64,000 bases of DNA from contig JAUSKB010000026.1 of NCBI GenBank assembly GCA_030647415.1, positions 10,894 through 74,893 of the forward strand, written 5' to 3'. This document shows, piece by piece, positions 52,527 to 63,938 of this stretch. The position numbers and the translations under genes were made by a program. The notes beneath the pieces were generated by a model, which searched no databases, had not been told where the DNA came from, and saw only the letters and a list, made by a program, of their open reading frames with translations. The DNA comes from a bacterium (GTDB lineage: Bacteria > Patescibacteriota > Minisyncoccia > UBA6257 > GWB1-50-10). The number at the start of each line of letters is the position of its first letter. The first letter of the stretch is position 1.

Positions 52527-52548
52527 ATAATCGACGGCTGTCGATTAT
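52527..52548. promoter_or_regulatory. Palindromic box ataatcgacggctgtcgattat downstream of PaaX-like gene 1.
   Basis: Cognate near-copy at 53234-53263. Confidence 0.5.
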
Positions 52549-52579
52549 CGTATATTCTCACTGAACACACTTCCCACCC

Positions 52580-53233
52580 TCACCTAGTGCGTACCTTCGT
52601 GCGGTCTTTGAGCGTCCCCTCCTTCCCCACCTCAAAGATCTCCATGTGGTGCAGTATGCGGAGGTCGCGAGCGTCCTTCAAAAAACGCTTCGGTAGTGGC
52701 CTCGTGCCGAGCCAGACGCTCTGGTGTAATTTCCGGTACTCGTTCCTGACGAGCACGGCGCGGACCCAATCGCGCTTCCATCGCTCCCGCTCAGGGATGT
52801 CGTAGGAGACAATGGTGATAGCGGCACGGCCGGGCTCGAGAACATACCGGCGGGGGTTGGGGATGTTCGGGCGAGCGGCGCGCTCCCGCTGTTCCCGCAA
52901 CCCTCGGGCCGTGAGTTGCACCCGGGCTGTCCCGCCGCGGCCGTAGCGCTCCACCAGGCCGTCGCGGACGAGATCGGAGACTGTTCGATAGTAGCGGAGG
53001 CGGGCCAAGAGTTTCTCATCCCGACTGGCCGCTCGCGCCGCGAACTTCCGCTCGTGCTTCGCGGCCGCCAGCCCATACCCCAGTTGCGGATGCATGTGCA
53101 TGGGAGCCGGCACGCTCGGGTCGGTCGTGGCGGAGTAGATTTCATCCCAGAGGTCAGCCACAATCCACTCCGTGCCAGCCAAGCCACTTAGTACCTTTGT
53201 TCTAAGCGAGTTCCACCGCGCGGCGTTTCCCAT
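52580..53233 (-). CDS. PaaX-family transcriptional regulator (paralogue 1).
   Basis: C-terminal ITIVSYDIPERERWKRDWVRAVL...YRKLHQSVWLG matches the PaaX_C signature. Start moved to the internal Met (MGNAARW...) so that the N-terminus aligns with paralogue 2. Confidence 0.6.
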   Translation of the reverse strand: MGNAARWNSLRTKVLSGLAGTEWIVADLWDEIYSATTDPSVPAPMHMHPQLGYGLAAAKHERKFAARAASRDEKLLARLRYYRTVSDLVRDGLVERYGRGGTARVQLTARGLREQRERAARPNIPNPRRYVLEPGRAAITIVSYDIPERERWKRDWVRAVLVRNEYRKLHQSVWLGTRPLPKRFLKDARDLRILHHMEIFEVGKEGTLKDRTKVRTR

Positions 53234-53263
53234 GGCAAAATTATACCATAATGGACGGCCGTC
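53234..53263. promoter_or_regulatory. Palindromic box taccataatggacggccgtctattacggta immediately upstream of the PaaX-like gene 1 start.
   Basis: Read directly. Abuts the proposed start codon, so it is a putative autoregulatory operator. Confidence 0.5.
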
Positions 53264-53370
53264 TATTACGGTATATTTGAGAACACTACAGGTTGCTTTC
53301 GTGCGAAAAAGCTGCACTTGTGGTAGGCGCAATTCTTTATGCTACATCTCGTCCAAACTGAAACAATCGG

Positions 53371-54744
53371 TCAACCTCGGTCGGAAAATCCAGCAAAGTC
53401 CGGTATGGGCTTCGGAAGCCCCACGGGGGCGCGAATACCGATGCAGAGCCCAATGGCGACCCAGAGGAGCAGGCGACCGGCTTGGAGATCCCAGAGAAAG
53501 TGGTCGAAAAGACCAAAGACGAGGAGTGAAAAGAGAACGAGCGCGGCGACACGGTTCGTGAATGGGTCGTCCGGTGATTTTCGAACCGCAAACACCCAGA
53601 GGAGGAATATAAAGAAAATGACCAGTCCGGCGACACCAAGCTCCGCGCCCACCATGAGGTACAGGTTGTGGATGGGCTGCCACTCCCAGGGATTCGTGAG
53701 CCCGCGCAACTGGTAGCGCCTGTCCGCCACACCCTCGATGAGTTGATTCCCAATGCCCACGCCGAATGGGCGCTCGAGAATCGTCTTGACCCCCACCTGG
53801 TCGTAAATCCACCGATGCGCCACGGACGGCTCCGTGGCGGAGAGATCCGCACGCGGCGCGATGGCCCATCCGAGGCCCGCCCAGACAATCCCGGTAGTCA
53901 ACACCAGTACGCCCGCGAATACGGCAATCCCGCGCCGCATCGCCCGTACGGTGATGCCCATGATAAGGAGCCCGACGATGCCGACCGCCGCCACAATCCA
54001 TCCGGAACGCGAAAAGGTGACGACGAGGCCGGCCGCGACGGCAAGGAATCCTGCCCCAGAAAGCGCCGCGCGGCCCCAGCGGCGCTCCGACGCGTTCCAT
54101 ACAATCGAGGCCGCGAGCGCAATGAGCCCCGTAATCAGAAATGCCGCGAGTATATTCGCATGGGGGAGCGTGCCGTACGCGCGAAGGTGCCGCGCGCCCT
54201 CGATGACGACCCGTGCGACGTTCTTCGTCGTCTCCCCGACCACCGATTCGCCAAGGAACGCGAGACCGAGGCTCCGACCCCGGTAGAACTGCGCGAGACC
54301 GATGAGCGCCTGGACCACCGCGCTCGCGCCGAACGCACCGAGCGCCGTGCGGAGCGGCAGGTACCGTGCGACGATGAAGCTTGCGACCGCCATCATCGCC
54401 ACAACTCCAACGAAGAGCCGAAACCAAACGTAGGTGCCGAGCGGTACCTGCATCGCGAACTCGATTGACCAGAGCGCGACGACAAGAAGGAGTATTGCAC
54501 CCCAACTACGCCGAAACGTCTCTCCAAGGAATCGTGACGCAGTAAACGCCGCGAGCACCAAGAGTCCAAGCGTAAAGAGGTCTGTCGCGTAAAGGAAGGC
54601 CGAGGCATACTCCCCCACATAGGCGTTCGTGAACGGGAAGGCGAACGGGAAAAGGAACTTCTTCGTCCCGAAGGGTAGGGCGAATATGAAGAGCACCCCG
54701 ACCCACCGGAGAATTCTTTCCTTCACCACAAGCGAGTTCGCCAT
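53371..54744 (-). CDS. O-antigen ligase-like (Wzy_C/WaaL family) polytopic membrane protein.
   Basis: About 11 TM helices with a large periplasmic loop bearing TFSRSGW and NLYLMVGAELG-type motifs. Confidence 0.55.
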   Translation of the reverse strand: MANSLVVKERILRWVGVLFIFALPFGTKKFLFPFAFPFTNAYVGEYASAFLYATDLFTLGLLVLAAFTASRFLGETFRRSWGAILLLVVALWSIEFAMQVPLGTYVWFRLFVGVVAMMAVASFIVARYLPLRTALGAFGASAVVQALIGLAQFYRGRSLGLAFLGESVVGETTKNVARVVIEGARHLRAYGTLPHANILAAFLITGLIALAASIVWNASERRWGRAALSGAGFLAVAAGLVVTFSRSGWIVAAVGIVGLLIMGITVRAMRRGIAVFAGVLVLTTGIVWAGLGWAIAPRADLSATEPSVAHRWIYDQVGVKTILERPFGVGIGNQLIEGVADRRYQLRGLTNPWEWQPIHNLYLMVGAELGVAGLVIFFIFLLWVFAVRKSPDDPFTNRVAALVLFSLLVFGLFDHFLWDLQAGRLLLWVAIGLCIGIRAPVGLPKPIPDFAGFSDRG

Positions 54745-54815
54745 ACGTTTTCATTCTCGCCGAAATGGGGCTTGTGAGCAATTCATTACACCCATGCGGG
54801 GGCGGGGACAAAAAA

Positions 54816-54847
54816 CCAGCCCCGCCGAGGCGGGGCTGGTTTTTTTC
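54816..54847 (-). terminator. Terminator ccagccccgcc-gag-gcggggctgg with flanking A/T runs, downstream of csp.
   Basis: Read directly. Confidence 0.7.
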
Positions 54848-54861
54848 TGACGATTGTCGGG

Positions 54862-62600: not shown

Positions 62601-62763
62601 GAAAAATTCGACACAAAGAAAAATCCCGCACGTGCGGGTTTTTCTTCGGTTACCATAATACTATTTCTCGGCACGGTTATCTTATATGCACACCAAATAA
62701 AATATTGCAGTGGAGAAAATTTAAATTAAGAATCATCTGGGCTCGTGTGCCCTCCTTCAAATT

Positions 62764-62991
62764 TTAAACTCCCCCACCTTCTAATAATCTCTTACGAATC
62801 TCTTCTCTCCGAACCGAGGCAGCATTATCTGAAATTGGAGCACCAGCCTCCACCTCTTCTGCACTCTGCCGGTCGTGAAGCGCCCTAGTTTCATCCTCCA
62901 TTTTACGGAGAGTCTCTTTCTCCTCTTCCGAGAGTTCTTGCTTTTTCAGCCCGCCATCACGAATAATTTCTCCAAACTTATTTGAGGGCAT
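62764..62991 (-). CDS. Hypothetical small acidic protein. Start uncertain; the track ORF extends to 63168.
   Basis: Glu/Lys-rich C-terminal half. Palindromic box P_c lies just upstream. Confidence 0.3.
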   Translation of the reverse strand: MPSNKFGEIIRDGGLKKQELSEEEKETLRKMEDETRALHDRQSAEEVEAGAPISDNAASVRREEIRKRLLEGGGV

Positions 62992-63160
62992 GAGGATAGT
63001 ATATGCACGACTGTACGGTTTTTCAACGGTATGTTTGTGGCTTCGTGCACGGTACGAGCCGAGCTTGGGACGTACCCACATTGATACGTTACTGTGTTGC
63101 GGTAGGTGTTCGGATTTCAAGGGGAACCTCGGTCCGTCGCTAATATATGCCGCGCTCACC

Positions 63161-63190
63161 GATTCCATTTTCTCGTATAGGACGGCAGTC
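63161..63190. promoter_or_regulatory. Palindromic box tctcgtataggacggcagtcctatacgaga.
   Basis: 30-bp near-perfect palindrome between the PaaX-like gene 2 stop and the next gene's start. Confidence 0.5.
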
Positions 63191-63258
63191 CTATACGAGA
63201 AAAAAGATTGAAAGAGATGAGTAGATTGTAAACCTAAATCAATCTTCGGTTCCCCCTC

Positions 63259-63894
63259 CTATCGCGTCCGGTCCCTGAGCGTCCCCTCCCTCCCCACCTC
63301 GAAGATCTCCAGATGATGCAGTACGCCGAGCTCGCGGGCATCCTTCAGGAACTGGTCCGGCAGGGGCTTAGTGCCCAGCCACATGCTCTGGTGGACCTTG
63401 CGGTACCCGTGGTTTATGAGCACCTCACGGACCCAGGCGCGCTTCCACCGCTCGCGCTCGGGGATGTCATAGGAGACGATAGTGATGACGGTGCGCCCGG
63501 GCTCCGGTGCGTACGAGTGGGGGTTTGGAGTTAAAGTGACCGTGCGTCGCTCGCGCTCGCGAATCCCTCGAATACTGAGCTTGAACCGCGCGGCCTCGCC
63601 GCGCTCGCGCTTCTCGACCAGGCCTTCCTGAATGAGTCGGGAAATTGTCCGTAGATACTGTAGACGCGACTTGAGACGCGCTTCGCGAGCCGCGACGCGC
63701 TCGCGATATTTCTGATCCAGTTTCGCGACCGCGCGACCATACCCGGGACGCGGAGTGTACCGCTTCCCGCCGGGTGCGCCCGCGGGCGTCGGCTGGGAGA
63801 GGACGTCCCAAAGCTCCTCGGCAACCCACTCCGCATGGGTGAGTGTAATGAGTACTCGCGTCCTTAGGGAATCCCGAATTCCTCCATGCGCCAT
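63259..63894 (-). CDS. PaaX-family transcriptional regulator (paralogue 2).
   Basis: VITIVSYDIPERERWKRAWVREVL...YRKVHQSMWLG. About 60% identical to paralogue 1 over the C-terminal 120 aa. Confidence 0.6.
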   Translation of the reverse strand: MAHGGIRDSLRTRVLITLTHAEWVAEELWDVLSQPTPAGAPGGKRYTPRPGYGRAVAKLDQKYRERVAAREARLKSRLQYLRTISRLIQEGLVEKRERGEAARFKLSIRGIRERERRTVTLTPNPHSYAPEPGRTVITIVSYDIPERERWKRAWVREVLINHGYRKVHQSMWLGTKPLPDQFLKDARELGVLHHLEIFEVGREGTLRDRTR

Positions 63895-63900
63895 AGGTTC

Positions 63901-63938
63901 ATTTTACCACATAGGACGGCCGTCCTATGTGGTAAAAT
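63901..63938. promoter_or_regulatory. Perfect 38-bp palindromic box attttaccacataggacggccgtcctatgtggtaaaat upstream of PaaX-like gene 2.
   Basis: Read directly. Lies 7 nt upstream of the start codon. Confidence 0.55.

Follow-up and report, generated by a model that had tools for sequence, protein, structure and literature searches.

Genes for PaaX- and Cas2-related proteins set between cognate twin palindromes: a conserved module in Patescibacteria

Introduction

PaaX is the phenylacetyl-CoA-responsive repressor of paa operons; in E. coli it recognises a 39-base-pair (bp) inverted repeat, TGATTC-N27-GAATCA, and acts by steric hindrance to repress its own promoter, Px (PMC9493321). Here we analyse a stretch of 64,000 nucleotides (nt) from a member of the Patescibacteria (contig JAUSKB010000026.1 of assembly GCA_030647415.1, positions 10,894 to 74,893 of the forward strand; hereafter the window), in which two paralogous genes for PaaX-related proteins, paralogue 1 (52580..53233, minus strand) and paralogue 2 (63259..63894, minus strand), are each bracketed by a pair of long palindromes. 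An earlier interpretation made from the letters of the window – the sequence-only reading – had taken these for two diverged regulator–operator pairs, each with autoregulation and with one downstream target. Our analysis follows the arrangement from the window into the protein family as a whole.

A repressor gene placed between two cognate operators is familiar from phage lambda, where cI lies between OL and OR, and the auxiliary operators of lac, gal and deo likewise serve repressors that loop between sites. With both operators occupied, such an arrangement gives cooperative and tight autoregulation; the lambda operator regions, which are 2.4 kilobases (kb) apart, also control outward-facing lytic promoters. 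A different precedent is Cas2, whose dimer lies along a duplex of ~23 bp in the Cas1–Cas2–prespacer complex. A third is provided by the RAYTs, the hallmarks of which are flanking cognate palindromes, a palindrome type particular to each paralogue, and distinct single-copy paralogues within a genome (PMC3337134).

The proteins encoded in the window have the Cas2-like middle domain of PaaX, preceded as in PaaX by a winged helix that is here a predicted one, and their palindromes, of 36–44 bp with an embedded -10 element, would fit an operator of the PaaX kind, a long inverted repeat with half-sites far apart; a twin site past the stop codon has not been described for PaaX. As in lambda, a putative repressor gene stands between two cognate putative operator regions; here, however, there is one site per side at a separation of ~680 bp, there is no phage context, and at half of the downstream sites the next gene is convergent. 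With the REPIN–RAYT system the locus shares a short single-copy gene that has its own type of flanking palindrome, the presence of several paralogues, and inheritance that is mostly vertical. In the literature searched we found described neither a combination of PaaX and Cas2 nor an arrangement of this kind in Patescibacteria, and we know of no transcription-factor family reported to have a bracket of twin sites that is independent of its neighbours and evolves in concert.

Results

Four palindromes around two genes

Box A, upstream of paralogue 1 (53239..53278), is an imperfect palindrome of 40 nt that is 88% self-complementary about the centre GACGGCCGTC; its partner, box B (52519..52556), begins 23 nt past the stop codon and has arms of 17+4+17, again 88% self-complementary, about the centre CGACGGCTGTCG. 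The corresponding sites of paralogue 2 are box C (63900..63939), a perfect 40-nt palindrome upstream of the gene, and box D (63168..63203), 55 nt past its stop codon, in which the arms (16+4+16) are perfect. No other inverted repeat in the entire window is as long as box A or box C, a direct-repeat search independently joined all four boxes as a single four-copy family (D2), and boxes C and D have in common the sequence ATAGGACGGC-GTCCTAT. Folded as a DNA hairpin, box C reaches -18.2 kcal/mol (z -9.8).

That palindromes bracket both genes had been recognised in the sequence-only reading, and all four are real; their limits required revision. The interval given for box A, 53234-53263, comprises the left arm and the centre only, that for box B (52527-52548) is the perfect inner part of a longer palindrome, the perfect 38-mer reported for box C is really a 40-mer, and box D occupies 63168-63203 rather than 63161-63190.

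The cores of the boxes are specific to the paralogue. The paralogue-2 core ATAGGACGGCNGTCCTAT, with up to three mismatches allowed, occurs in the 64-kb window only at C and D, against 0.09 occurrences expected; the paralogue-1 core occurs only at A and B (0.00 expected). The bare 12-mer GGACGGCNGTCC, searched with two mismatches, is not enriched in the window (32 occurrences versus 31.8 expected), and it is therefore the long palindromic context that constitutes the signal; the three other ACGRYCGT octamers of the window are without palindromic arms. A search for further core-centred palindromes, which had been proposed as a means of defining regulons, returned no copy beyond boxes A to D when run within the window.

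A palindrome–gene–palindrome module across the family

An exhaustive profile-free search (E <= 1e-3) showed the family to comprise 1084 representative clusters at 50% identity, the members of which are nearly all 180–215 amino acids (aa) long and share the same two-domain layout. All 20 of the 20 genome matches were to metagenome-assembled genomes (MAGs): 18 belong to named lineages of Patescibacteria, which include Saccharibacteria, Wolfe-, Lipton-, Portnoy-, Sung-, Kaiser-, Berkel- and Moranbacteria and Paceibacterota, and two are labelled only 'bacterium'.

From genomes and metagenomes 100 loci were fetched, of which 84 are non-redundant, and a palindrome was counted as a strict box if centred on CGATCG, CGGCCG, CGGTCG or TGATCA. 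The density of strict boxes is 3.0 per kb in the 160 nt nearest the gene ends, compared with 0.035 per kb in the other flanking DNA (288 kb), a difference of 86-fold. A site with the centre motif is present on both sides of the gene in 66 of the 84 non-redundant loci, and at 58 of those 66 the upstream and downstream boxes are cognate, that is, identical at 26 or more of 36 bases; among pairs assembled from different loci the proportion is 0.9%. The median distance from centre to centre is 678 bp. The bracket, with the same kind of box, is seen also at more distant members of the family that likewise combine a winged helix-turn-helix with a Cas2-like domain (loci L011, L012, L015 and L020). 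Since both the enrichment of boxes and their cognate pairing recur across the family, the gene between twin palindromes is a conserved, family-wide module, of which the two genes in the window are local instances. A fixed relative orientation of the two boxes is not among its features (9 direct, 3 inverted, 44 ambiguous).

Boxes that stand alone are few, numbering about 5 in the 288 kb of flanks of other loci. One, at 363-401 of locus L042, lies just past a terminator; at locus L088 a third cognate box, at ~1432, is situated between convergent genes. We considered that solo boxes might be decayed copies of the gene, and discarded this idea when six-frame searches with hidden Markov models at L042, L088, L008, L039, L099 and L024 showed no remnants.

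Several of these loci hold other sequences that deserve record in their own right. Between 1400 and 2930 locus L088 is rich in palindromes and poor in genes, beside a xerC-like recombinase gene; this segment contains a perfect 50-nt palindrome of another type (at ~2632) and two more long palindromes. Locus L042 contains, ~190 nt downstream of its solo box, an unannotated open reading frame (ORF) at 588-776 for a zinc-ribbon-like protein of 62 aa (CxxC...CxxC), with a promoter-like TTGACA-17-TAAGAT and a terminator of its own. At locus L099 two palindrome types, CCTGACGATCGTCAGG and CTCGCCGATCGGCGAG, have the same outer arms and are both found on each side of the gene (~3580-3700 and 4420-4550), in the order [P1][P2]-gene-[P1][P2].

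Anatomy and evolution of the boxes

Counted outward from the dyad, offsets 1–4 are conserved throughout the family as ACGA-TCGT or ACGG-CCGT (the hyphen marks the dyad); the arms are specific to the locus. Offsets 5–7 are variable and the least symmetric, offsets 8–10 show a weak TAT, and offsets 11–17 are the most symmetric of all (0.83–0.95 paired) and yet differ between loci. Symmetry fades past offset 20, and outside the centre the stems are AT-rich. The putative half-sites are centred ~28 bp apart, a spacing that is unusual for a small dimer and that matches the operator of PaaX. The central pair has been exchanged many times, and CGGTCG sites of mixed type are encountered even within one locus; recognition by the protein probably does not involve these two bases. 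An attempt to find residues that co-vary with the type of centre, CGATCG versus CGGCCG, was dropped because the centre has switched so many times.

Comparison with orthologous loci shows which parts of the boxes are maintained. The orthologue of paralogue 2 (P0001, locus L103) has 94% aa identity; box C is present there, and box D is a perfect palindrome with the centre GGACGGCCGTCC. The spacer between the stop codon and box D has diverged, and has suffered a 5-nt indel, while box D itself has been kept. For paralogue 1 the orthologue (locus L102) is 74% identical without gaps and has the same tRNA-Arg downstream. Here box B has retained its inner 20 nt, its two outer arms have both diverged and still pair with each other, and the box is a perfect 38-mer. 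The upstream box of L102 departs from box A by many changes, which are symmetric, and is now like the paralogue-2 type.

Among 58 loci we counted 57 compensatory double changes between the two copies, compared with 8.5 +/- 2.7 in permutations. Each site is therefore kept twofold symmetric in its own right.

The boxes could in principle be hairpins that act without any encoded protein, as terminators or as RNA-stabilising stem-loops at the ends of transcription units. Boxes A to D are indeed all strong predicted hairpins (z -3.2 to -9.8), and a pattern scan marked box B as resembling a terminator in either direction. At 37 of 45 loci, moreover, the gene upstream is co-directional, which puts the upstream box where its terminator would be, and the genome has another repeated hairpin family that lies just past stop codons. 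However, a T-run, counted as 5 or more T among the first 8 nt beyond the stem, follows just 4 of 46 downstream boxes, whereas ordinary GC-rich terminators with T-runs are found elsewhere in the window (I4, I7, I10, I13); together with the AT-rich stems this led us to reject intrinsic terminators. Mismatches of the G.T and A.C kinds show no strand bias, at 40 versus 49 in upstream and 45 versus 36 in downstream boxes, and so give no sign of selection on an RNA stem; nor was there a match to any Rfam family. On these two grounds RNA-hairpin function was set aside as the main explanation.

Two paralogous proteins with PaaX- and Cas2-like domains

Paralogue 1 (217 aa) is identical to the NCBI protein Q7S84_03875, annotated as 'hypothetical protein' (P0004 among our homologues), and is 54% identical end to end to paralogue 2 (211 aa; E 3e-74). 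The same MAG encodes at least two further paralogues, Q7S84_04920 and Q7S84_00715, at 55–59% identity, and so has four or more in all.

In Pfam both proteins match PF20803 (PaaX_M, 'PaaX protein central Cas2-like domain') above its cut-off of 24 bits: paralogue 1 with 38.5 bits (E 1.3e-9, residues 141-212) and paralogue 2 with 36.4 bits (E 5.6e-9). The same family is precomputed for homologues P0001–P0005. This bears out the earlier view of the two as diverged paralogues of a PaaX-related DNA-binding family. It does not bear out the 'PaaX C-terminal signature' in which that view was grounded: the motif in question, VSYDIPERERWKR...HQSVW, sits in the Cas2-like PaaX_M domain (beta1-alpha1...beta3), and a Pfam search matched PaaX_C (PF08223) in neither paralogue. 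Both proteins stop ~5 residues beyond the Cas2-like domain. Profile searches, which had been suggested as a check, thus bear out the Cas2-like domain and not PaaX_C. The N-terminal PaaX winged helix (PF07848) gave nothing at E <= 1 in the Pfam search; a winged helix is nonetheless present in the structural model.

That model, made with AlphaFold2 for paralogue 2 on 38 homologues (mean predicted local distance difference test score, pLDDT, 85.6), comprises a winged helix (helix 53-89, beta hairpin 93-106, helix 108-118) and a second domain of beta-alpha-beta-beta-alpha-beta topology (residues 137-208). Its top fold match in the PDB is E. coli PaaX, 8a39, with E 2.4e-3 and a template modelling (TM) score of 0.25, two domains being involved; there follow many winged helices of the ArsR, PadR, MarR and AspA kinds, and then Cas2 (5xvn_F). 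Structures of PaaX itself include those from E. coli W (PDB 8a39) and Jannaschia (3l09).

Differences from PaaX are equally clear. The proteins are ~200 aa long, against ~305–316 aa for PaaX, and are without the phenylacetyl-CoA-binding PaaX_C domain; the PaaX equivalog TIGR02277 scores 17.5 bits, far under its cut-off of 264.55, and no paa genes are found among the ORFs of the window or among the best 25 of 62 families matched by 62 neighbour proteins. Because the equivalog fails so widely and paa genes are not nearby, both proteins are best placed outside the PaaX regulator family proper, as predicted 'mini-PaaX' proteins: PaaX-related, with the same two domains.

Towards Cas2 the relationship is also partial. 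Cas2 models in PADLOC match residues 138-172 of paralogue 2 (E 4e-4), and the curated cut-offs for Cas2 are missed, with 18.4 versus 24.5 bits for TIGR01573 and 14.5 versus 23.8 for PF09827. The beta1 'YDI' Asp and the 'Q-x-S-V-W/F' motif of Cas2 are both kept. On the other side, the domain is here fused to a winged helix, its scores are sub-threshold, and the searched context has no array and no cas genes: a repeat search found no CRISPR-like array in the window, and the best 25 of 62 neighbour families include no Cas family. Retention of the Cas2-type 'YDIPE' Asp is a further difference from E. coli PaaX, which has presumably lost it. Among 149 family members this residue (D143, the Cas2 catalytic-position Asp) never varies, nor do R152 and S170, while conservation of Y128 and E146 is at least 90%.

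Upstream boxes overlap predicted leaderless promoters

Reading the coding strand through the gene-proximal arm of box A reveals an extended -10 element, TGGTATAAT (53240..53248, minus strand), followed by TTTGCC and by the ATG at 53231-53233 (...CCATTATGGTATAAT-TTTGCC-ATG). The gene-proximal arm of box C has the same design: an extended -10 element, TGTGGTAAAAT (63901..63911, minus strand), then GAACCT and the ATG at 63892-63894 (...CCTATGTGGTAAAAT-GAACCT-ATG). A -10 element followed by exactly 6 nt and an ATG fits a leaderless promoter; in this predicted geometry the upstream palindrome would span roughly -6 to -45.

The design recurs. The orthologue of paralogue 2 at L103 keeps TAAAAT-AAACCT-ATG; the correct start codon for the orthologue of paralogue 1 at L102 is the ATG at 185, which stands after TATAAT-AAGCGT, again 6 nt; and a -10-like hexamer exactly 6 nt ahead of the predicted ATG is seen at L025, L029, L037, L051 and L088 as well. 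A good -10 is present in the gene-proximal arms of 32% of upstream boxes, versus 12–14% for the arms of downstream boxes. Within the region of the window studied here, three genes have a -10 hexamer exactly 6 nt from the ATG (53231-53248, 63892-63911 and 62989-63026), which suggests that the organism commonly uses leaderless mRNAs.

Overlap of the upstream box with the gene's own promoter, as for PaaX at Px, makes the autoregulation proposed in the sequence-only reading a reasonable prediction, and autorepression by each paralogue is plausible.

Downstream boxes and neighbouring genes

The gene next to box B is tRNA-Arg(ccg) (52342..52416, minus strand), 103 nt from the end of the box. A promoter-like TTGAAA-17-TACAGT lies between the two at 52460..52432, ~60 nt from box B, and both the synteny and the promoter of tRNA-Arg are kept at L102. 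The tRNA gene is probably not part of the module, and its earlier designation as the target of box B finds no backing in this layout.

Downstream of box D the situation is complicated by gene prediction. The ORF 62764..63168, once named as the target of paralogue 2, does place its ATG against box D, but there is reason to doubt this start codon: the single match of the ORF in databases is a 75-aa call of the same MAG, the orphan gene Q7S84_03935 (62764..62991, minus strand), the ATG of which is at 62989-62991. The orphan gene has its own promoter (TTGAAA-17-TATACT, 62998-63026, then 6 nt and the ATG), and box D lies ~140 nt upstream of it. The 134-aa version that reaches 63168 is probably over-extended.

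Considered over the family, the downstream neighbour is convergent at 24 loci and co-directional at 24 (n=48). The genes concerned are unrelated housekeeping genes – for aminoacyl-tRNA synthetases, a Xer recombinase, thioredoxin reductase, FtsW and GyrB – and an examination of neighbour families for a conserved functional partner found none. The position of the downstream box is thus independent of the neighbour, and boxes B and D are off their neighbours' promoters; for these reasons we regard the downstream box as part of the regulator's own module and not as evidence of a separate target gene.

Genes for tRNAs show a mild excess next to the modules. Of ~86 modules, 7 have one no further than 200 nt from their end (the window, at 52342-52416, and L008, L029, L046, L051, L076 and L093), roughly four times the ~1.7 expected by our own estimate from the tRNA density typical of small genomes.

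Other repeats and features of the window

A hairpin unrelated to the boxes, CAGAGGCGAGACCTC-N11-GAGGTCTCGCCTCTG, with a GC-rich stem of 13–15 bp, is present at 40460-40501, 41111-41152 and 56281-56322. Every copy closely follows the stop codon of a gene on the minus strand. Two of them, separated by 651 nt, enclose a Nudix-like gene (40546..~41080), and the hairpin has the look of a repeated terminator or a REP-like family. At 2868-2905 there is a perfect AT-rich palindrome of 38 nt, TGTCTCAAATTTGTATCAT joined to ATGATACAAATTTGAGACA with the centre CATATG, which is operator-like and unrelated to boxes A to D.

The motif TTTACCCTGTTAGAAGTTTACA occurs four times (D5, D20), at 14259, 38058, 60667-60693 and 60792-60818, with inverted partners at 60759-60792 and 60884-60917; two direct and two inverted copies thus fall in the spacer between a Mur-ligase-like gene and ruvA, and the motif may be the site of another regulator. 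A repeat of ~66 nt is found three times (8559-8627, 9438-9510 and 10032-10104; D6, D7, D9), at spacings of 879 and 594 nt and with 92–96% identity, and may mark the leaders or promoters of tandem paralogous genes. The window also contains a tmRNA gene (17132-17461) with the tag peptide ANRTVAVPAFAFA.

Discussion

What the analysis establishes, and any explanation must accommodate, are the palindromes, their positions, their conservation across the family, their locus specificity and the architecture of the protein. The explanation that we favour, and in which we have moderate confidence, is that the protein is a PaaX-type dimeric repressor of its own leaderless promoter and that, through a twin site past the stop codon, the gene forms a closed and insulated unit. 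On this model one dimer would cover one palindrome of ~40 bp. The Cas2-like domains would form the core of the dimer, over the conserved centre ACG(A/G)-(T/C)CGT, and recognition of the locus-specific bases, ~11–17 bp to either side, would fall to the two winged helices; a dimer stretched along a duplex, as in Cas2, is the kind of spacer role that we propose for mini-PaaX. Since the -10 element from which the gene would be transcribed falls within the upstream palindrome, protein bound there would exclude RNA polymerase and so bring about negative autoregulation. The same protein would also bind the cognate palindrome past the stop codon, and the two occupied sites, ~680 bp apart, could close off and insulate the gene, either through a loop between them or as roadblocks that stop transcription from passing into or out of it. 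In keeping with a self-contained unit, the 64-kb window has no boxes besides A to D, and no neighbouring gene is conserved among the modules.

A number of observations weigh against this model. One is the self-symmetry of the sites: a simple operator with two half-sites does not require such upkeep. Quasi-palindromes tend to be 'corrected' by template switching during replication, and correction of this kind, or selection on a hairpin or cruciform, may explain the symmetry or contribute to it. The distance between the two box centres shows no helical phasing (Rayleigh n*R^2 0.02 at a period of 10.5), which removes phasing as evidence for looping. A few solo boxes, which stand at convergent gene ends or past a terminator and not at promoters, fit poorly with a plain operator, and the invariance of D143 is not predicted by a purely structural role in dimerisation. 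The putative correspondence between protein and box is read from co-location and co-variation; boxes C and D differ at offsets 10–14, a difference that is kept at L103, and if these offsets set specificity then one protein may bind C and D unequally; and since the upstream box of L102 has come to resemble the paralogue-2 type, cross-binding among paralogues is possible. Finally, this would be a regulator with detectable sites only around its own gene and therefore no obvious output and, being without a ligand-binding domain, no evident signal input.

One alternative is that the unit is a domesticated selfish or mobile element, in the manner of REPIN–RAYT or IS200-type elements, with a Cas2-like domain that acts enzymatically on palindromes in hairpin or cruciform form. 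The protein would nick, copy or maintain the palindromes, and the gene between palindromes would be the footprint of this activity and not an arrangement of operators. The module does display the three RAYT hallmarks – flanking cognate palindromes, a palindrome type for each paralogue, and several single-copy paralogues per genome – and further in its favour are solo palindromes that are extragenic, at convergent gene ends and without a gene remnant beside them, palindromes that are often perfect over 40–56 nt with an excess of compensatory change, the invariant and highly conserved residues of the Cas2-like domain, the sub-threshold matches of bona fide Cas2 models to that domain, and the excess of neighbouring tRNA genes. 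We nevertheless judge it unlikely. An all-against-all comparison (blastn) of modules and their flanks gave no sign of recent movement: modules that are 67–100% identical in DNA share at least one homologous flank of similar divergence (as in the pairs L008/L088, L004/L006, L009/L073 and L002/L025), L102 and L103 keep the genomic context of the window paralogues, no near-identical module turned up in another context, and no transposition footprint was seen among the modules. Dispersed copies are few in the DNA covered, the 64-kb window and the 288 kb of flanks, where REPINs number hundreds per genome. The fold is PaaX- and Cas2-like and unrelated to that of Y1 transposases – matches in Pfam, NCBIfam and fold searches are to PaaX, Cas2 and winged helices only – and the family has no conserved His-hydrophobic-His (HUH) motif. 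It was not found in viral contigs (IMG/VR) or phage records. PaaX itself, moreover, is a plain repressor with an operator of 39 bp.

A more specific version of this idea is entertained because the Asp at the Cas2 position, R152 and S170 do not vary: the protein would be an enzyme acting on the extruded hairpin by way of a catalytic Asp, and the unit a new, vertically inherited selfish or domesticated element of the Candidate Phyla Radiation (CPR), comparable in function to REPIN–RAYT and built on the Cas2 fold. To this version, stated in full, we attach a low probability. If true, it would represent a new kind of palindrome-associated element, and could bear on how Cas2 first became linked to repeat DNA.

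Control of one downstream target through the distal box, with autoregulation through the upstream box, was the arrangement envisaged in the sequence-only reading. It has in its favour that both neighbours in the window are co-directional and ~60–170 nt from the distal box, and that at L042 a box precedes, by 55–65 nt, elements resembling the promoters of two adjacent genes. With the next gene convergent as often as co-directional, however, it does not serve as a general explanation; the neighbours are housekeeping genes with nothing in common, good -10 elements are infrequent in downstream arms, box B is upstream of the tRNA promoter and not over it, and box D is off the orphan promoter and abuts an ORF start that is probably unreal. 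We find it quite improbable. Hairpins that act without an encoded protein are more improbable still, given the mismatch and T-run data, and would leave unexplained both the paralogue specificity and a centre conserved across phyla.

The family poses a puzzle: its members, putative regulators, have neither a domain for ligand binding nor a conserved partner, and yet on the two sides of each gene cognate sites are maintained, every one of them symmetric in itself. Genomes of the CPR/Patescibacteria are small and have few recognisable regulators, and in public annotation the present family is to be found under 'hypothetical protein'. It offers dozens of protein–palindrome pairs in which a fixed centre is combined with variable arms, and hence a test bed for the way in which a dimer of the PaaX/Cas2 type engages a 40-bp site; the same pairs are a possible source of orthogonal repressor–operator parts. 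Should it be true that the second site insulates the gene or loops to the first, the module would represent a compact and self-contained autoregulatory design.

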